Shown piece by piece: positions 1,076-30,296 of a stretch of DNA of 43,583 bases. This stretch comes from a phage. The translations under genes and the position numbers were made by a program. The first letter of the stretch is position 1. Every line of letters begins with the position of its first letter. The stretch lies in assembly GCA_012646105.1 (NCBI GenBank), contig GCA_012646105.1_4328.1, one strand, 5' to 3'. A model generated the notes under the pieces. The model was not told the origin of the DNA, did no database searches, and saw only the letters and a program-made list of their open reading frames with translations.

Positions 1076-3706
1076 TTAACTAAAACCGTTGCTGAATCCG
1101 TCGGAGAAACCGCGACCGAAAGGTGCGACGCCGTCGTATTTGTAGAAATCTGCTTCGTAGTTAACCCCGGTAATCTTAACTGTTCTGTCATCTCCCGGGT
1201 CAACTGTAGAAACAAGAATCATCTGAGCATTATGCCTTGCTTCGTTACCGAATGAAAACTCAGTTTTTAGCGCACTATTCCCTGTGTAAATTGCTTCTTG
1301 AGGCGCGGATAACATAACCACTTCTCGGTCGTGGCTTCCCTTGATAACAGAGATACTTTGCACCGAGCCGTCGCGCTTCTTGAGAATGAGTGAATGGTCA
1401 TCTCCGGGGGTAAATGTAACTGGCTGTGATAGTGTCAGGGTAAGCCCATTAACGGCAACGACATAACCATCTTGAGGTGCTACTCGCGAGCCTTTAACTA
1501 CGCTTATTGCCCGTCCTGGAAGCACAAAAACCCCTTCTTCTGTCGCCGTGAATGATACCGTAACTTTTTTCAACAAGTTCTTCTGATACCGGCGGTACGC
1601 GGCCCAATATGCTTGCCGGTAGTTGCGGATACCTTTAGAGTCATACGTTTCAGTATTAACGCCGCCCTCGGCTGGAATGCTAATAGTCTCTTTTACGTTG
1701 GTATCAGTGTCGATGTAGGAGAACTTAAGGCTATCGTATACCTGAGAGTCGTTAAATGTGCGTGTCCATTTTTCCGAAGCTGTTGTCTTGCTGCGGTGGG
1801 TGAACACCATCTCTGGCCCCATACGTGGACGTTCGAAATCCAGTAATATGTCCTGTCCTTTACGATATGGAGTGCAGAAAATAGCATCAGCTATTGTGCT
1901 GATGATATCCTGCATGGTCGTTTTATAATCGTCAAAGGTGTAGCAGAATTGTCCTGCATCAACGTTACCGAAATAGTTTTCTATCTCGGTTTGAGTTGCT
2001 AGCAATTTATCCATATTAGATGTTGTGAGGTTGAGATTCCCTACAACCGGGTCGCGGGCCAGACGGATTAAGGACTGAACCGCCTGCGTATTCGGCGTCA
2101 TTACGGTGTCAAACACACCATTACCCAGGTATTTATAAACCATCTCAGTCGCCACCATACGTAGTTGAGGCTGCTTAATCTCTGCGGCCCGAGGCGTCTG
2201 CTTACGTGCGGAGTGTACGGTAGTACGATTGCCGTAATGGGGTGTAGTGTCACGAACCTGCCCATAAAGGTTGATGTAGGAAACCTCGTCTACCACGGTA
2301 CCCTCGAAATCAAGGTCCAGGTTGGTAACACGACGGGCGCGCACCCGAACTTTAGACCTCACGGGCAAGTCGGCGTAAATAGTAACTCCAGTGTAATCCG
2401 CCGAACGCCCTGATAAAGTGGCCTGTTTCGAGTAAATATCTCCGTATGGCATGCCAGTTTCATCAAGTAGCTGATACTGAAGCTCGACAGTTACCGCCGT
2501 TCGCAATTTGCTGCCGTTATCCTTGTACATACCATTAGCGGCCGCGATGTTGGCTACTACGCGTTCAACTTCCAGGCGGTTTAAGATAGTCCAGTCGGTT
2601 AGTGTTTTTTCATAGGTGTCCACCGGCCCCACCCACGTGTCACTTCTCTGGGAAAGTGAATAGGCTGTTGAACCTAAAGCTGCCCAGTTAGACGCGCCGC
2701 CGGTGTCGACTCGCAGCTCGAAGTTATCAACATAAAGAACGCGGAAGTTGCCGTTGGTGTTTGTCACGCCCGGAACGTCGAAGTTATTGAACGACGCGGT
2801 GTCCCCTACCGATAATATTTCAGCAAAACCAGAATCCCCCGTGTCATCATACAGGTATCCAATTTTTGTAGCGGAGTCATACCTCACACGGCCAGTGTCG
2901 CTTGGGTTGACCCGAATATCGTTCTGCGCTTTAAGAACAGCACCGTCTACTTCATTAGAAGCGATAGTTATATAAAGATTCTGATTGATAGGCTCCCCTA
3001 CCAGAAGATGAGGGGTATTTGTATTGTTGGGGGATGTAAACGGCGCGTACACCGCGACAGAGGTCCCTGTAATCTCCTGTACTTTAGTATCACCGTCAGT
3101 AATGTCTTCTGCTTTGATATCAAGGTACCCGCGACCGGCGTCGTAGTATCCGTACTCAATAATGCGACCAGATTCATCGAATATCTTATACGTAGTCATG
3201 AGGTCGTTAGGGATAGTCTGGACCCTGCCGCAAATATCATACGACCGTTCATACGGACGCGGTTTATTGTTTCGGTCCGTCAGGCTGTTGTTGGGCGACT
3301 CCGCCTGCTGATTCGCTAAACTCGTTTTAGGTGTTTTCTGTGACGGAGAAATAAGTTTAGTGACAAACTTAAGTACGCCCAATGGGTCAAGCAATTTCCC
3401 GAGAAACCCACCGCCACCGCCTGCGCCTTCGATAATATGGAAAACATCATCTTCTTTCAGCGCTTCGAAGTTTTCCGTTACGTCGGTGTCCTCACCAATC
3501 TCGCCACGGTAAATACGTACTGGTACCCCGTCTGGGATGTTGGCGACAACATATTCCATAGGGGGTACGTTATGCCGTTTGTGGTCGAAAGTACCGCCTT
3601 CATTACGGGTGTAATGTATTATTAGCGCCAAAATTCTATCTCCGCATAAGTTTCGCGCAAGTCTTCCAGACGGTCTAACCGTACCTGGCGACTCGCGAGT
3701 TCGCAA
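1076..3706 (-). CDS. central tail fibre / tail-tip host-specificity protein (876 aa ORF; alternative ATG at 3559)
   Basis: six-frame ORF; size and position after minor tail genes; Gly-rich linker GGGGGF; no good RBS at either start so coupling to upstream gene likely. Confidence 0.6.
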   Translation of the reverse strand: MRTRESPGTVRPSGRLARNLCGDRILALIIHYTRNEGGTFDHKRHNVPPMEYVVANIPDGVPVRIYRGEIGEDTDVTENFEALKEDDVFHIIEGAGGGGGFLGKLLDPLGVLKFVTKLISPSQKTPKTSLANQQAESPNNSLTDRNNKPRPYERSYDICGRVQTIPNDLMTTYKIFDESGRIIEYGYYDAGRGYLDIKAEDITDGDTKVQEITGTSVAVYAPFTSPNNTNTPHLLVGEPINQNLYITIASNEVDGAVLKAQNDIRVNPSDTGRVRYDSATKIGYLYDDTGDSGFAEILSVGDTASFNNFDVPGVTNTNGNFRVLYVDNFELRVDTGGASNWAALGSTAYSLSQRSDTWVGPVDTYEKTLTDWTILNRLEVERVVANIAAANGMYKDNGSKLRTAVTVELQYQLLDETGMPYGDIYSKQATLSGRSADYTGVTIYADLPVRSKVRVRARRVTNLDLDFEGTVVDEVSYINLYGQVRDTTPHYGNRTTVHSARKQTPRAAEIKQPQLRMVATEMVYKYLGNGVFDTVMTPNTQAVQSLIRLARDPVVGNLNLTTSNMDKLLATQTEIENYFGNVDAGQFCYTFDDYKTTMQDIISTIADAIFCTPYRKGQDILLDFERPRMGPEMVFTHRSKTTASEKWTRTFNDSQVYDSLKFSYIDTDTNVKETISIPAEGGVNTETYDSKGIRNYRQAYWAAYRRYQKNLLKKVTVSFTATEEGVFVLPGRAISVVKGSRVAPQDGYVVAVNGLTLTLSQPVTFTPGDDHSLILKKRDGSVQSISVIKGSHDREVVMLSAPQEAIYTGNSALKTEFSFGNEARHNAQMILVSTVDPGDDRTVKITGVNYEADFYKYDGVAPFGRGFSDGFSNGFS

Positions 3707-3987
3707 TGACTGACCATACCGTCATAGTATACTCCAGCGTGCCAGATTACACGGTTTCTGTGTCGTGTTGCCATAAGAACGGCATCGAAGTTTTGCGGGG
3801 TTTCCGTGCGTACAAGACCTTTAGTGTCTTTATGACCTTCTTCAAATGCATCATTAATCTGTGTTGGCGAAGCGACGTTAAACTCAGGCGTGGCGAGGCC
3901 TGCGTCCGCACGGACGTTACGCACATGGTGCCAGCAATTACGACGGCGAAAATCGTACGGTAGCCCTGTATAAGAATTAATATTCAT
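3622..3987 (-). CDS. minor tail protein (121 aa)
   Basis: six-frame ORF, ATGA-type overlap with upstream gene, position in tail-tip module. Confidence 0.5.
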   Translation of the reverse strand: MNINSYTGLPYDFRRRNCWHHVRNVRADAGLATPEFNVASPTQINDAFEEGHKDTKGLVRTETPQNFDAVLMATRHRNRVIWHAGVYYDGMVSHCELASRQVRLDRLEDLRETYAEIEFWR

Positions 3988-15470: not shown

Positions 15471-15493
15471 AAATTACCTCTTAGTAAATGAAA

Positions 15494-15513
15494 AGAGGGA
15501 CCGAAGTCCCTCT
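15494..15513 (-). terminator. rho-independent terminator after major capsid gene
   Basis: AGAGGGAC-CGAA-GTCCCTCT perfect 8 bp stem followed by T-run on minus strand. Confidence 0.55.
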
Positions 15514-15529
15514 CGATTATATATTAACC

Positions 15530-17283: not shown

Positions 17284-17365
17284 AGTCAGTATGTCCCCTG
17301 GACGTTGGAACCCGGGCCACCCGGATTTACATGTCAAGAATAAATTATTCCAACATGCAAGGCAA

Positions 17366-17629
17366 CTATTCCAGAATATTCCTTACATAATCCTGCAGCA
17401 TGAACACCTTCAGGCGCAGTTGCCGTACACATTCGGCATTCTGAACATCGATAGCCAAATCCTCGTCGGCGTCGCTACTTGGCGTGGCCAGTTTGCACGG
17501 CGGCTGCATCATCGTCGTATCCGGGAATGGAATTGGCGTTTGCGACGGCGCGGGACTTGAGCAGGACGCGAGCATCATCGAAAGTGCACACGCTGCGGCC
17601 AGGCGTTCTAATGTACTTAACGACTTCAC
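17366..17629 (-). CDS. Rz1-like outer-membrane spanin lipoprotein (87 aa)
   Basis: signal peptide ending in lipobox LASC, Pro-rich mature region; ORF starts inside the i-spanin gene in another frame. Confidence 0.6.
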   Translation of the reverse strand: MKSLSTLERLAAACALSMMLASCSSPAPSQTPIPFPDTTMMQPPCKLATPSSDADEDLAIDVQNAECVRQLRLKVFMLQDYVRNILE

Positions 17630-17861
17630 GGGTAATCACCTCTGATTTCGTCTTGCCTTCGTTGTCAGCGGCGGCTGCCTTTGATTCGTCCTGCTGCTGC
17701 CGTTGTGTTTTCTTCGCTAACTCGGCCTGCGCTTCTTGCTGTTGCTGTGAAACGAGATTCGCCCGGCCTTCGTTCCAGCCGCTGCGGTATTGAAAGTAGC
17801 CGTGTGCGTAAGCCAGGATGATGAAACATGCTCCAGCTACGACAGTTGCTTTAAGATTCAT
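17475..17861 (-). CDS. Rz-like inner-membrane spanin (128 aa)
   Basis: N-terminal TMD (VVAGACFIILAYAHGYF), Gln/Glu/Ala-rich coiled coil, overlapping o-spanin ORF. Confidence 0.65.
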   Translation of the reverse strand: MNLKATVVAGACFIILAYAHGYFQYRSGWNEGRANLVSQQQQEAQAELAKKTQRQQQDESKAAAADNEGKTKSEVITREVVKYIRTPGRSVCTFDDARVLLKSRAVANANSIPGYDDDAAAVQTGHAK

Positions 17862-17885
17862 GTTTCTCCTTTCTCGATAAGTAAA

Positions 17886-17905
17886 GCCCCGCCTTAAAGC
17901 GGGGC
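17886..17905 (-). other. stem-loop GCCCCGC-CTTAAA-GCGGGGC about 25 nt upstream of spanin start
   Basis: 7 bp GC stem followed by T-rich tract on minus strand; putative attenuator or terminator. Confidence 0.35.
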
Positions 17906-18180
17906 GCTAGTCCTTATCATTTAAACACAGAAACGGCGTAATCTCAGTAAATCAGTTACTTTTTACACAAGCAATAGAGTATGGCCCTTCCGGACGCGTC
18001 AGCGTAACTACACTCAGGACTTACGTCCAGCTCCGTTACCTGCCCGCGACGCGGTCGCTTGTTCATACTTCACAAGCTCAGGTGGAGCTTAGCATATTTT
18101 TAGTGAAAAGTCAACTATTCGAATAGTTTATTCCAACATTTACAATTGAGTGGAATAACTGGAATGCGTAAACAAATAGT

Positions 18181-18209
18181 TTGCATACTCCAATATAATA
18201 GGGTACTAT
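18181..18209 (+). promoter_or_regulatory. promoter TTGCAT-N17-TACTAT with embedded operator-like palindrome
   Basis: -35 at 18181-18186, -10 at 18204-18209, RBS AGGAG at 18224-18228, ATG 18237. Confidence 0.5.
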
Positions 18210-18236
18210 TCAGTTAACTTAAACAGGAGATGAGAA

Positions 18237-18758
18237 ATGGTTACTACGGTAATTACTTTCCCTGCGTATGTAGGGGCGAAAATCTGCAGGGCTAAAAACG
18301 ATGTGCGCTACTATTTGAACGCTTTTTACATAGAACCTGAGGGGTTGATAGTGTCTACGGATGGGCATAGATTGTTCTGCGACAATGTGAAGACAAACGT
18401 TGAGAAAGGGGTTCTCATTGATATCAAAGGGAGAGAGCCTTCTAAATTTAACTACGCAGAGGTAGACCACGACAACGGCAGTGTTTCTTTCTATGACGAT
18501 AGTCGCGCGCTTATATGTACACTTCCGGTAGATGTTGTAGAAGGAAACTTTCCTGACTGGAGACGCGTGGCGCACATCACACCGGGTGTTGTCGATAGTA
18601 TAGGGTTCACTCTGCGTTATTTGGCAGACGCGTACAAGATTTCTAAGGCGTACAAAAATGAAATTTCTCGTTTCGATTTCCAGGACCAAACCAGAGGATG
18701 CAAAATATCATTTTCAAACACGGCCTTTATGGTGTTAATGCCCGCGCGATTTAAATAA
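18237..18758 (+). CDS. hypothetical protein (173 aa), counter-oriented insertion in head module
   Basis: strong RBS, own promoter and terminator; no motif recognised. Confidence 0.6.
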   Translation: MVTTVITFPAYVGAKICRAKNDVRYYLNAFYIEPEGLIVSTDGHRLFCDNVKTNVEKGVLIDIKGREPSKFNYAEVDHDNGSVSFYDDSRALICTLPVDVVEGNFPDWRRVAHITPGVVDSIGFTLRYLADAYKISKAYKNEISRFDFQDQTRGCKISFSNTAFMVLMPARFK

Positions 18759-18762
18759 AACT

Positions 18763-18783
18763 AAGGCCCCGTTAAGGGGCCTT
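18763..18783. terminator. bidirectional rho-independent terminator
   Basis: AAGGCCCC-GTTAA-GGGGCCTT perfect 8 bp stem, A/T runs on both sides. Confidence 0.6.
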
Positions 18784-18786
18784 ATA

Positions 18787-19248
18787 TCATTCTGGTTTGG
18801 TGACCTTCGCCGCTTTACTGACGGCCTCTACACCATCGGCATCAGTAACTTTAACGAAGTATTCACCCACCGCGTTAACCGTCAGAGACAAAGCCTCTTC
18901 CGGGGCGTTTACTACTTCCTTACCATCTTTGTACCAGGTCAGAACATACGGCGCTTTGCCTGCCTTAACTTCGACAGTGATAGTTGCGCTGCCGTCTACC
19001 AATTCAGTGTCTTTCGGTTGCATAGAGAAATACACATCGCCAGCATCGGCCAGATACGGAATCTCGTAAAGCATGCCCGCCGCTGGCAGCGCAATACCGG
19101 TTTTATCCGCAAACGGCATCTCGTCTACAGGCGAACCTAGTACACTTTCGTCCTCAATAAATACCACGTTCTCGCCGGAGCCAGACACACGGGCGTACTG
19201 GACTACGCGACGTGACGGCACATCAGTTACTTTGAAAAAGCCCATCAT
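18787..19248 (-). CDS. structural protein with C-terminal Ig-like domain (153 aa)
   Basis: PYVLTWYKDGKEV...GEYFVKVTDADG I-set-like pattern. Confidence 0.5.
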   Translation of the reverse strand: MMGFFKVTDVPSRRVVQYARVSGSGENVVFIEDESVLGSPVDEMPFADKTGIALPAAGMLYEIPYLADAGDVYFSMQPKDTELVDGSATITVEVKAGKAPYVLTWYKDGKEVVNAPEEALSLTVNAVGEYFVKVTDADGVEAVSKAAKVTKPE

Positions 19249-25748: not shown

Positions 25749-25777
25749 AATATAATAGGGTCGACGGTAATAGTCAA
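25749..25777 (-). promoter_or_regulatory. promoter TTGACT-N17-TATATT (minus strand) with operator half-site
   Basis: -35 at 25777-25772, -10 at 25754-25749, upstream of gene starting 25714. Confidence 0.4.
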
Positions 25778-25805
25778 CTAGTCATTGCAGAAATAGATAA
25801 AAAAA

Positions 25806-25830
25806 ATCCCGGCTGGGTCAGGGCCGGGAT
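25806..25830 (-). terminator. rho-independent terminator ending the lysis transcription unit
   Basis: ATCCCGGC / GCCGGGAT stem with 9 nt loop, followed by T8 run on minus strand. Confidence 0.5.
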
Positions 25831-26061
25831 AAAACTGGAGAGCAGAGGGATGGAACAGGAGGTGATTTAAGTATCGTCGGATTAGTCTCAGGTGTCAATT
25901 GGTAAAATAAAACCCGGATTCGCGGTCCGGGTTTCTGTCATAAGCCCCTGAACCCTACGCAGTCTCCACCGCTTGGGCTGCTGCTTCGGGTTTACCGGGG
26001 CTTAGTATGCGGGCACAAACAGCGTGGATGTAAGTTTACTAAACGCCTTCGTATTCGTCCA

Positions 26062-26598
26062 TCATTTAACAGCCCTCCCAATAGCCTCAGCCTCTTGCCA
26101 CGGTTTACCGTCGAACAGCGCCAGACGCCCGGCTGTACGGCGACGCAGGCCAAGTAGTGGTTTGCCGTTCTGGTTGATGAACAGTGCCAGCTTAGCCCGC
26201 AGTGTTGCAGTATCACCAGAACGCAGTGCCTTGCCTGTGCCCGTAGTAGACGCAATCACGCCAGCACCTGCGTTATACACCAGGTCACACACTGCATCGA
26301 ACTGCGACTGTGTCAGTGAATGGTGTGCTACTGCATCAACCGCAGCTACGGCCTTAGCCATATCGCGATTCAGTAACAGGAGGCCTTGCCCCTTCGTAAT
26401 CTTCTGCCCTTCATACACATGAGGGCCATAGCTTCCGTAGCCTATGGTTAAGTATTTTTCCGAAGGTGTCGCGCGGTATGCGGTCCCGCGGAAATCTTCC
26501 CACGCAGCGGTAAAATGCAATCCGTTATCTGAAATGTTTCGAGACACGCTTATGTCCTCCGTATGACAGCCACGCCTGACGAATCTGGCGCAGCGCAA
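26062..26598 (-). CDS. endolysin, T4-lysozyme-like (likely GTG start at 26547 preceded by GGAGGA)
   Basis: catalytic-region pattern NGLHFTAAWEDFRGTAYRA...LTIGYG. Confidence 0.8.
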   Translation of the reverse strand: MRCARFVRRGCHTEDISVSRNISDNGLHFTAAWEDFRGTAYRATPSEKYLTIGYGSYGPHVYEGQKITKGQGLLLLNRDMAKAVAAVDAVAHHSLTQSQFDAVCDLVYNAGAGVIASTTGTGKALRSGDTATLRAKLALFINQNGKPLLGLRRRTAGRLALFDGKPWQEAEAIGRAVK

Positions 26599-26797
26599 CT
26601 AATGTGATTAATGTCTCGGGTAGCGTAGGCGACATGCTGCCCTGTAACAGGTGGATACATCCGGCGGCGCAGACGATGGCGGTCAGAATATAGAGCACCC
26701 TGCCAAATAACCCGTCGTCCACGCGTTCATTATACACGTTGAACAAGGACGAAGCGCCCATCGCCAGCATTACGACAAACCAGAATAGCTCAGTCAT
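26525..26797 (-). CDS. second lysis membrane protein (2 TM; antiholin or pinholin candidate)
   Basis: ATG 26797 with RBS GGGAGG; two hydrophobic helices; between holin and endolysin. Confidence 0.5.
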   Translation of the reverse strand: MTELFWFVVMLAMGASSLFNVYNERVDDGLFGRVLYILTAIVCAAGCIHLLQGSMSPTLPETLITLVALRQIRQAWLSYGGHKRVSKHFR

Positions 26798-27098
26798 GCG
26801 GTCCTCCCGGGCGGGCAATATCACCGCCCGATACGATGCCAGAAAGGCGGGAATAGATAGGCATCCAGAGAATGGCAATGATGAATCCGAGGCCAGCTAT
26901 CTCGCGCTCACCGGTAATACCGAACCATTGAGCGGCAAGAGGTGCGCCGAAAATAGCACACGCGAAGCCGGTTAGAAGAAATACCAGTCCGTCGACTGGA
27001 CCGGATATAGACTTTTTATGTTGTCTTAGTCCGACCAATCCACCGACCAGTGCGGCAGCGAGAAGCCAGCCTGTCACTGTTTCAGTAAATTTATCCAA
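26790..27098 (-). CDS. holin (102 aa, three predicted TM, TTG start with GGAGGA RBS)
   Basis: three hydrophobic segments, charged C-terminus, upstream of endolysin. Confidence 0.6.
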   Translation of the reverse strand: MDKFTETVTGWLLAAALVGGLVGLRQHKKSISGPVDGLVFLLTGFACAIFGAPLAAQWFGITGEREIAGLGFIIAILWMPIYSRLSGIVSGGDIARPGGPHD

Positions 27099-27119: not shown

Positions 27120-27608
27120 TTAAGTATGCAGTAACTGGAGGATAGCACGGTTAGGAATTATCCTAATAGTTGTTTGGTAATAATCTTGCCGCCTGTGTTG
27201 GTGTCGAACTTCGATGCAACGGCTACGCCGCCATGCGCCGCCATGCGCCGAATATCCGCACTCCATAGCGGCTAATGCATATGGCGAGCCAGACCCCACG
27301 GCGGCGTACACATCAGCAACCGGAATAACTGAACTAAGCGCACAATCCCATGATTTATAGAACGCGACTTTGTACACCTTTTCTGTGTCTTTCACGAACA
27401 CCAGGGCTTCGAAATCGAAGTCATAGTGCTGTGGCCGAAGAATACCAGGGCAATCGATAAGCATAGTGCCAACTCCTGCGTCGCCAGCCACACCAATAAC
27501 AGCAAAATCATTCTCATATATCTTTGTGTCTGTGTTGTAGCAGTTACTTCCGCACACAACACGGGTGTCACAACCCATTGTCTTTCCGTCAAATGCGATA
27601 GTAGTCAT
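27120..27608 (-). CDS. HslV-like Ntn-hydrolase peptidase homolog, C-terminus possibly frameshifted by a 10 bp duplication
   Basis: MTTIAFDGK N-terminus, NDFAVIGVAGDAG and AVGSGSPYALAAM blocks resemble HslV; tandem CCATGCGCCG x2 at 27231-27250. Confidence 0.5.
   Translation of the reverse strand: MTTIAFDGKTMGCDTRVVCGSNCYNTDTKIYENDFAVIGVAGDAGVGTMLIDCPGILRPQHYDFDFEALVFVKDTEKVYKVAFYKSWDCALSSVIPVADVYAAVGSGSPYALAAMECGYSAHGGAWRRSRCIEVRHQHRRQDYYQTTIRIIPNRAILQLLHT
27231..27250. repeat. perfect 10 bp tandem duplication CCATGCGCCG-CCATGCGCCG inside coding sequence
   Basis: seen directly in sequence. Confidence 0.9.
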
Positions 27609-29864: not shown

Positions 29865-30296
29865 GAAAATAGTTACGTTGCCGTTGTGATTCTTTGGGGA
29901 AGGTTGTGCCTTTATTCTTATTACTTGGTAACTAAAGGGCAGGCCTTAAGCCTGCCCAATAATCGTTACATTTTTACGGTTGCGAATCTACGGCATATTA
30001 AGAAAATCAGATACTTAAGAGATATGCTGCCGATGTGAATAGAGCTTGCCCAGGGCAACCGGAGATACTTAGGAAGGAAAGTTACGATAATTCATATGTT
30101 CAGTAAGCCTGCTGCTTAACCCTTTGCTTAACGCACGGGTTAAGCATTCTTACAAGGTGAACAGGAATCAAAGTAACTAAGATATAGAAGCACCTTAAAC
30201 GAAGATTTTCATAATGTCAATAGGTGCGATTATGTTTTATTTCCCATTATTCGCAATGTATACTTGGTTTCGTTAACTGATAATGAGGGTTTGAGA

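Follow-up and report, generated by a model that had tools for sequence, protein, structure and literature searches.

Two overlapping open reading frames on the minus strand, predicted to encode an i-spanin and an o-spanin, lie among the head genes of the phage DNA analysed here, 8.2 kb away from the lysis genes proper: at least 19 genes are found between the i-spanin start (17861) and the endolysin stop (26062). The features of both loci are collected in Table 1. The window, i.e. the whole stretch of 43,583 bases, is probably a near-complete genome of a Kagunavirus (Guernseyvirinae), since its size is about that of Kagunavirus genomes (41–45 kb). The 6-kb region around the spanins is 90–92% identical across 90–100% of its length to many Escherichia Kagunavirus phages, among them fFiEco02, fEg-Eco19, Snoke and K1ind-type phages, and several hundred Salmonella Jersey-like phages match it at lower identity. 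Both loci belong to a minus-strand arm that runs from ~29810 to 1076. It begins with small genes, an HslV-like peptidase gene, the holin, a second holin-like protein, the endolysin and further small genes and continues with terS, terL, portal, head morphogenesis, Hoc-like decoration, spanins, scaffold, major capsid, connector and tail genes. The replication genes occupy the plus strand from ~30264, divergent from this arm.

A canonical contiguous holin-endolysin-spanin cassette is thus not what this genome carries. An earlier note on this DNA, made from the sequence, had put the spanins in the head module about 8.5 kb from holin and endolysin, which is borne out by the measured distance. The note had further located them between the head morphogenesis gene and the scaffold; this is the right slot, but the pair does not directly follow the head-morphogenesis gene: a Hoc-like gene, a bidirectional terminator, a clamp-like gene on the plus strand and a promoter/leader region of 300 nt intervene.

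Table 1. Predicted features of the spanin locus and of the holin-endolysin locus (positions in the window)
Feature	Position	Strand	Details
o-spanin gene	17366–17629	minus	87 aa, mature lipoprotein ~65 aa; GTG start, lipobox LAS/C, Pro-rich N-terminal part
Two-frame region	17475–17629	minus	155 nt; i-spanin C-terminus together with o-spanin signal peptide and N-terminus
i-spanin gene	17475–17861	minus	128 aa; N-terminal transmembrane domain (TMD), long periplasmic helix, conserved Cys92; basis: open reading frame and PHROG match
GC-rich hairpin	17886–17905	minus	8 bp, -17.2 kcal/mol, then UUUACUUAU; the i-spanin Shine-Dalgarno sequence follows 15 nt downstream
Untranslated leader, ~170–200 nt	17906–18078	minus	
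Sigma-70-type promoter-like site	18086–18114	minus	TTGACT, 17-nt spacer, extended -10 TGcTAAGCT
Palindrome, operator-like	18128–18158	both	TTATTCCA-N14-TGGAATAA, just upstream of the -35 hexamer
Clamp-like gene	18237–18758	plus	
Bidirectional terminator	18762–18784		-17.5 kcal/mol, z -4.0
Hoc-like decoration gene	18787–19248		
Intrinsic terminator	25901–25935	minus	10-bp stem, UUUUAUUUU; -14.6 kcal/mol, z -3.3; ~125 nt past the endolysin stop
Endolysin (glycoside hydrolase, phage lysozyme family)	26062–26598 (maximal ORF)	minus	PF00959, E 2.3e-24; PHROG 7, 33703
Second holin-like membrane protein (holin/antiholin class II)	26525–26878	minus	PHROG 2508, E 2.4e-34, aligned from residue 28
Holin, class I-like	26790–27098	minus	PHROG 2359, E 3.8e-32

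The spanin genes and their family

The i-spanin gene starts with ATG, and AGGAG at 17866–17870 can serve as its Shine-Dalgarno sequence. Residues ~5–23 of the product are hydrophobic (Kyte-Doolittle maximum of 1.65 over 19 residues), and its one periplasmic cysteine is found at position 92. A single-sequence AlphaFold2 model shows residues 3–84 as a helix (block pLDDT 78–91 up to about residue 60) and residues 94–107 as a second helix of low confidence; confidence is low past residue 60 altogether. The model fits a TMD that would continue into a periplasmic helix, and for the Snoke orthologue (91% identical) the GenBank entry carries a TMHMM note with N-in/C-out topology. The protein matches PHROG 2536 ‘Rz-like spanin’ with an E-value of 1.5e-54. 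Its amino acid identity is 92% to the ‘putative spanin’ of K1ind3, 90–96% to Kagunavirus i-spanins in general and 61–76% to Jerseyvirus i-spanins. Using tblastn we found i-spanin homologues in 554 phage records; Cys92 is kept in seven of eight aligned homologues.

The GTG start of the o-spanin is preceded by GAGGTG 7 nt upstream. Its signal peptide reads MKSLSTLERLAAACALSMMLAS/CSS, with the lipobox L-A-S-C and a serine at position +2, and the protein contains 8 prolines as well as Cys45 and Cys67. E-values of 2.5e-30 and 3.1e-17 were obtained against PHROG 5672 and PHROG 1267, respectively, both of which are labelled ‘Rz-like spanin’ as well. The eight homologues aligned, which represent several phage genera and reach down to 36–44% identity, retain the N-terminal TMD, the lipobox cysteine (8 of 8) and the pattern P-C-K...D-x-D-E-D...C, in which P44, C45, K46, D-x-D-E-D and C67 are invariant. 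The o-spanin frame is +1 relative to that of the i-spanin and extends 109 nt beyond the i-spanin stop; the architecture is therefore overlapped, not embedded. An i-spanin with a TMD and an o-spanin with the lipobox LASC, the latter starting within the i-spanin gene and passing its stop, had been described in the earlier note. Both open reading frames are present at these positions, hydropathy and signal agree with the description, and the 155-nt overlap and the 109 nt beyond it confirm the layout. Together, the predicted N-terminal TMD of the i-spanin, the putative SPII lipobox with a residue other than Asp at +2, the gene overlap and the periplasmic cysteines, which are candidates for disulfide bonds, are the hallmarks by which a spanin pair would be recognized.

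Kongari et al. (2018, BMC Bioinformatics 19:326) described a ‘Jersey’ family of 27 overlapped i-/o-spanins that includes K1G, K1H and K1ind1-3. In phage Jersey the overlap is 155 bp, conserved cysteines are located at o-spanin positions 45 and 67, and for the periplasmic domain of the i-spanins of this family two helices were predicted, with beta strands in the linker. The spanins studied here appear to be direct members of the Jersey families (e.g. K1ind2/K1ind3, K1G, Jersey, SETP3, SE2; PHROG 2536 and 5672), with which they share the length of the overlap, the position of the lipobox, Cys45/Cys67 and the genomic slot upstream of the scaffold gene. They differ from other members by a few amino acid substitutions, and the clamp-like gene is a differing insert upstream of the leader. 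Judged by sequence, the pair is an i-spanin/o-spanin pair of the Jersey families and distinct from the lambda Rz/Rz1 families.

Neither spanin reached the gathering score of PF03245 (Rz) or PF06085 (Rz1). A Pfam scan with E-values up to 0.1 yielded no hit for the o-spanin and, for the i-spanin, only sub-threshold hits to DUF2514 and Nucleoside_tran, and NCBIfam and PDB sequence searches with both proteins gave no meaningful match. We did not count these missing matches against a spanin assignment, because spanin families are numerous and poorly covered. ‘Rz/Rz1’, as the pair had been called in the earlier note, is appropriate as a functional label, but not as a family name. As in lambda Rz/Rz1, a type II inner-membrane protein would be paired with a lipoprotein of the outer membrane, the o-spanin is read in the +1 frame of the i-spanin gene, and a membrane-fusion mechanism gated by peptidoglycan removal is presumably common to both. 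Unlike lambda Rz/Rz1, the genes are overlapped rather than embedded and lie apart from holin and endolysin, and no family relationship to the lambda proteins was detected.

We also considered whether the two genes could encode small head-assembly or membrane proteins that have a hydrophobic N-terminus and a lipobox by chance. They do sit among head genes, Pfam, NCBIfam and PDB hold no match for them, and in the literature searched we found no experiment on any Jersey-family spanin, so that the function assigned to them rests on signals, homology and context. A chance origin is nevertheless hard to reconcile with a TMD protein and a lipobox protein as partners, a +1-frame overlap and periplasmic cysteines that are kept in eight homologues down to 36–44% identity, and the window contains no other candidate for disruption of the outer membrane. 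Further, in Klebsiella phage KpnBHU6 (PV189480) homologues of the two proteins fill the place of the spanins in a canonical lysis cassette. This phage carries an overlapped pair whose members belong to PHROG 2536 and 5672 (the i-spanin is 41% identical by tblastn), but there the pair is placed directly after holin (PHROG 20) and endolysin (PHROG 7) and before terS/terL, in a lambda-like cassette. Its position lends contextual support to a lysis role, independently of the head-module location seen here. We regard a non-spanin function as highly improbable.

The earlier note would have been contradicted by the lack of a lipoprotein signal or by a second spanin pair next to the endolysin. The signal is present, and neither a second pair nor a unimolecular spanin is found next to the endolysin gene. 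A window-wide lipobox scan of all ORF starts gave no second credible lipoprotein or spanin candidate; its remaining matches were antisense ORFs and a transmembrane segment within the second holin-like protein. An ORF within the endolysin gene (25992–26255) was considered as a second o-spanin and rejected, as it has neither signal peptide nor lipobox. The two frames thus very probably encode a two-component, overlapped Jersey-family spanin, a standard component of Guernseyvirinae within the head module, as signals and homology of the predicted products indicate.

The holin-endolysin cluster and the position of the spanins in related phages

A holin, a second membrane protein and an endolysin had been reported at 26062–27098, and the matches to PHROG 2359, PHROG 2508 and PF00959 agree with this. 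The Snoke orthologue of the holin is annotated as holin/antiholin class I with 3 TMDs, that of the second holin-like protein as a protein of 93 aa with 2 TMDs. The true starts of both the second holin-like protein and the endolysin are probably located downstream of the respective maximal ORF starts. This cluster had been described as an operon with a promoter and a terminator of its own. The terminator is found as expected, and one is also annotated downstream of the Snoke endolysin gene, but directly in front of the holin gene, which begins 21 nt after the HslV-like peptidase gene, we found no promoter. Beyond the endolysin terminator there are two good sigma-70 promoter-like sites at 25870–25898 and 25749–25777, with a second terminator-like hairpin between them.

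The spanin slot between head-morphogenesis and scaffold genes is kept in four genera: Kagunavirus (e.g. Snoke, K1ind3 and ORH_001), Jerseyvirus (Jersey UPWr_S1, VSt10), Cornellvirus (Shemara and FSL SP-031, where the spanin architecture is ‘separated’) and Dhillonvirus (SSL-2009a), a genus apart from the others. By the genomes compared, the arrangement is the standard Guernseyvirinae layout, with the spanins always in the head module and not beside holin and endolysin. GenBank entries already name the genes at this slot: K1ind3 has a ‘putative spanin; overlapping gene’, and in Snoke i-spanin and o-spanin are annotated with TMHMM and lipobox notes. In the Golestan entry the spanins are ORF7/8 and the holins and endolysin ORF66-68. 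The genome announcement of Schulenberg calls holin/antiholin and endolysin “genetically separate” from the overlapping spanins, and the separation is also described in the fBC-Eco01 paper. What the earlier note describes, an overlapped spanin pair at a distance from holin and endolysin, is therefore correct and already published. A precedent is known from T4, in which the spanin genes PseT.3/PseT.2 are far from holin (t) and endolysin (e) (Kongari et al. 2018); these differ from the pair described here in their ‘separated’ architecture, in sequence family and in lying outside the head-gene module.

Promoter, leader and transcription unit of the spanins

Upstream of the i-spanin gene we found a sigma-70-type promoter-like site whose pattern is unique in the window, and next to it an operator-like palindrome that occurs at one site in the window against an expectation of 0.02. 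In 33 relatives the two hexamers, the TG of the extended -10 element and the palindrome arms are nearly invariant, and most changes affect the spacer and the centre of the palindrome, which can also be recognised in Jersey and FSL SP-031. A shared operator that would link the spanin promoter to the lysis cluster was not found: the palindrome TTATTCC...GGAATA occurs once in the window, and its 8-mer half-site is not clearly enriched there.

The leader that would lie downstream of this promoter is followed by a GC-rich hairpin, which may be terminator-like or a leader structure. Two relatives show a compensatory change from C-G to U-A in its stem; Jersey and FSL SP-031 have a hairpin of different sequence at the same place. 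In the GenBank entry of fBC-Eco01 a ‘host promoter1’ (PHIRE) and an ARNold terminator are annotated at the matching places of promoter and hairpin. If the hairpin acts as a terminator, spanin expression from the proposed promoter could require read-through. An Rfam search of 17300–18300 with E-values up to 1 gave no match. A leader ORF of 36 codons (18066–17956) was rejected as a gene: it is frameshifted, truncated or startless in ~8 of the 33 relatives, so the constraint on the leader is not a constraint on a protein.

The 304-nt promoter/leader segment (17862–18165) shows 95–98% nucleotide identity in 175 phage records, 65 of them Salmonella phages. We compared the locus with that of VSt10, a Salmonella Jerseyvirus. 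Identity is 94.3% for palindrome and promoter, 95.4% for the leader and 100% for hairpin and ribosome binding site, and drops sharply at the i-spanin ATG: it is 74.7% for the non-overlapping part of the i-spanin gene, 70.6% for the overlap region and 75.2% for the part that encodes only the o-spanin. For scaffold and major capsid genes we found 81.6% and 81.8%, respectively.

Such a profile could mean that spanins and leader were lodged as a mobile cassette at a recombination-prone junction of the head module, instead of being integral to a late operon and co-adapted with it. A leader 94–100% identical next to flanking genes at 71–82%, with the break at the i-spanin ATG, looks like a recent exchange, and GGAATAA-type boxes are present on both sides of the spanin genes. 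What lies between the leader and the Hoc-like gene varies: the plus-strand clamp-like gene is found here and in Snoke, the slot is empty in K1ind3 and ORH_001, and other opposite-strand genes occupy it in Cornellvirus and fBC-Eco01, while Dhillonvirus has two opposite-strand genes after the spanins. The same spanin families also occur in the canonical cassette of KpnBHU6. Against this stands the position of the spanins, which is the same across four genera, so that any insertion must be ancient; moreover, the high conservation of the leader could equally reflect purifying selection. We consider a mobile cassette a real possibility, yet one that falls somewhat short of being probable.

The divergent control region of Snoke contains a 78-nt stretch that is paralogous (91% identical) to the promoter plus the 5′ leader part and faces the operon with holin and endolysin at its end. 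In the window, the leader at ~29925–30225 and the spanin leader gave a weak local alignment with a score of 24, which was matched by 10 of 500 shuffles. Both of these leaders carry an exact AAGTAnCTGATTTnCT box 56–59 nt before a GC hairpin; a scan of IMG/VR with this 14-base box returned mostly unrelated contigs. Paralogy of the leaders is clear only in Snoke.

Downstream of the spanins no terminator was found between o-spanin and scaffold genes, and a strong one follows the capsid gene (15493–15514), from which we infer that spanins, scaffold and capsid form one transcription unit. The site at 18086–18114 is presumed to be the promoter of this unit. The three Guernseyvirinae genera examined all have a conserved GGAATAA box and a covarying hairpin in the gap that separates the scaffold start from the o-spanin stop. 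The earlier note had assigned the spanins to the late operon; this assignment does not hold in that form, as they are separated from the terminase, portal and head morphogenesis genes by a terminator and a gene on the opposite strand and have a promoter-like site of their own.

Parts from which a cis-regulatory RNA/DNA switch could be built, for example a terminator/antiterminator or a processing element, are present: the operator-like palindrome, the promoter with its extended -10, ~200 nt of untranslated leader and the GC hairpin. The 304-nt segment would then be such a device and not a plain promoter, more conserved than the surrounding genes and exchanged between E. coli Kagunaviruses and Salmonella Jerseyviruses. 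We think this unlikely; if true, relatives such as Snoke would control both lysis loci, as well as scaffold and capsid, through a single regulatory device.

Timing and proposed action of the spanins

An ‘early-type’ operon for holin and endolysin, and thus lysis units of different timing, had been read in the earlier note from gene position only. According to this proposal, holin and endolysin would be expressed from an early or middle host-promoter operon and the spanins late, with the head proteins, so that the capacity for outer-membrane disruption would be timed apart from wall degradation. Several features are in line with it. Small genes form a run that leads from the divergent control region at ~30000–30260 to a strong terminator, and the lysis cluster makes up its distal part; in Snoke the cluster has small genes on either side, with NinH-/NinZ-like genes downstream, which is typical of lambdoid delayed-early regions; and the promoter-like site of the spanins differs, with a palindrome that occurs nowhere else in the window. 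Other observations point the opposite way. Lysis genes upstream of terS/terL on the same strand are the layout of the lambda late operon, too, and early synthesis of a holin would tend toward premature lysis. The 91%-identical promoter/leader paralogue at the head of the holin/endolysin operon in Snoke hints at shared control. RNA-seq of Kagunavirus vB_Eco_K1B4, the only Kagunavirus transcriptome that we found, places lysozyme, NinH-like, Mu-F-like head and capsid genes in one ‘middle’ class, which at the coarse resolution of this data set (time points from 5 to 120 min) comprises 42 of 57 genes. The spanins are not mentioned in that study, and its supplements hold annotation and network tables only. 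Taken together, we find split timing of the two loci rather unlikely.

For the mode of action we infer membrane fusion and disulfide formation by analogy to lambda, following the summary of that paradigm by Kongari et al. (2018). As in lambda Rz/Rz1, the i-spanin would be anchored in the inner membrane via its N-terminal helix. The o-spanin would be lipoylated at Cys23 and, with serine at +2, sorted to the outer membrane. The C-termini of both proteins would bind each other across the periplasm, where the conserved cysteines may form intermolecular disulfides. The peptidoglycan mesh would hold the spanin complexes apart and allow them to accumulate without harm. Once the holin has triggered and the endolysin has destroyed the wall, the complexes could fuse inner and outer membranes and finish lysis. 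As spanin activity would be gated post-translationally, by holin and wall degradation, no linkage to the holin and endolysin genes would be needed. Enough spanin expression before lysis would suffice; it is probably supplied by the conserved sigma-70-type promoter of the spanins themselves, from which the unit would run on through the scaffold and major capsid genes to the terminator at 15493–15514.

The value of the locus as a discovery is small, since pair, architecture and separation have been catalogued (Kongari et al. 2018) and stated in genome announcements of close relatives. Its value for annotation is more practical: in many GenBank entries of relatives the spanins are called ‘hypothetical protein’ or the o-spanin is cut short at 47 aa, and the GTG start and the lipobox of the o-spanin should be called correctly. 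The arrangement also illustrates an established biological point: peptidoglycan removal gates the spanins, so their genes may reside anywhere in the genome where they are expressed before lysis. In addition, the conserved features of the leader suggest that a regulatory device may control the spanin-scaffold-capsid unit.

Conserved non-coding segments around the spanin genes

The non-coding segment directly 5′ of the i-spanin gene (17862-18165, minus strand), which comprises the presumed promoter and the leader of the spanin genes, is more conserved than the genes that flank it, and we found it at 95–98% identity across 175 phage records. In a comparison with the Salmonella phage VSt10 the segment is 94–100% identical and identity drops sharply at the i-spanin ATG: the spanin genes of VSt10 share 71–75% identity with those of the window, and the scaffold and capsid genes ∼82%. 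A 36-codon ORF is embedded in this leader and was found disrupted in about 8 of 33 relatives. An Rfam search of 17300-18300 (E up to 1), spanin leader included, returned no match.

A second conserved block is located between the o-spanin stop and the scaffold start. It was found in Kagunavirus, Jerseyvirus and Cornellvirus, and the base pairs of its CCGGGTGGCCCGG hairpin covary in Jersey and FSL SP-031. In Cornellvirus a gene on the opposite strand parts the block from the o-spanin gene.

Coordinates of features identified in the window
Feature	Position	Strand	Details
Conserved block between o-spanin stop and scaffold start	17284-17365	minus	GGAATAGTTGCCTT-N8-TGGAATAATTTATTCTTGACA, then CCGGGTGGCCCGG hairpin, then scaffold RBS
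Promoter, ∼250-nt leader and GC hairpin with T-run	29925-30225	minus	hairpin 29937-29957
Stop-free ORF, 551 codons	15488-17143	plus	antisense to major capsid and scaffold genes
Terminator, first pair	about 25901-25935	minus	downstream of endolysin
Promoter-like site, first pair	25870-25898	minus	TTGACA-17-GATACT
Hairpin plus T8, second pair	about 25800-25830	minus	terminator-like
Promoter-like site, second pair	25749-25777	minus	TTGACT-17-TATATT
HslV-family peptidase-like gene	27120-27608	minus	PHROG 1040, E 6.7e-26
Clamp-like gene against head-module direction	18237-18758	plus	PHROG 3007 match; bidirectional terminator 18762-18784

The holin–endolysin run and its boundaries

Another promoter/leader module heads a leftward series of small genes, the last of which encode holin and endolysin. 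The leader of this module has an exact AAGTAnCTGATTTnCT box in common with the spanin leader, located 56–59 nt 5′ of the hairpin. Within the window the similarity between the spanin leader and this module is only marginal, and the equivalent site of phage Snoke (27682-27758) is clearly paralogous to the spanin promoter/leader (78 nt, 91%). The HslV-family peptidase-like gene lies directly 5′ of the holin gene with a gap of 21 nt; it is kept in relatives and carries the label ‘protease’ in Snoke. On the 3′ side of the endolysin gene we observed two terminator-then-promoter pairs in tandem (25749-25935, minus strand), which come ahead of the small genes running to terS.

Opposite-strand reading frames in the head module

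The product of the clamp-like gene matches a PHROG labelled RusA-like and shows weak similarity to DNA polymerase III beta; its Snoke counterpart is annotated as ‘sliding clamp’. The slot of this gene differs among relatives: it is empty in K1ind3 and ORH_001, and in fBC-Eco01 and Cornellvirus it contains different genes on the opposite strand. The long ORF antisense to capsid and scaffold looks like a gene-calling artefact and not a gene; in the GenBank record of ORH_001 (PV656001) its equivalent is annotated as a CDS that replaces capsid and scaffold.

A canonical lysis cassette in Klebsiella phage KpnBHU6

The unannotated record of the Klebsiella phage KpnBHU6 holds at 2754-3963 a holin, an endolysin and an overlapped spanin pair, which together make up a canonical cassette. 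The endolysin has a hydrophobic N-terminal segment that appears SAR-like by eye, and the spanins belong to PHROGs identical to those of the window's pair. The N-terminus of the KpnBHU6 i-spanin (MSRLTAIISAVVILLLSCFFSW) appears similar to that of lambda Rz, a likeness that, if true, would suggest mosaicism.
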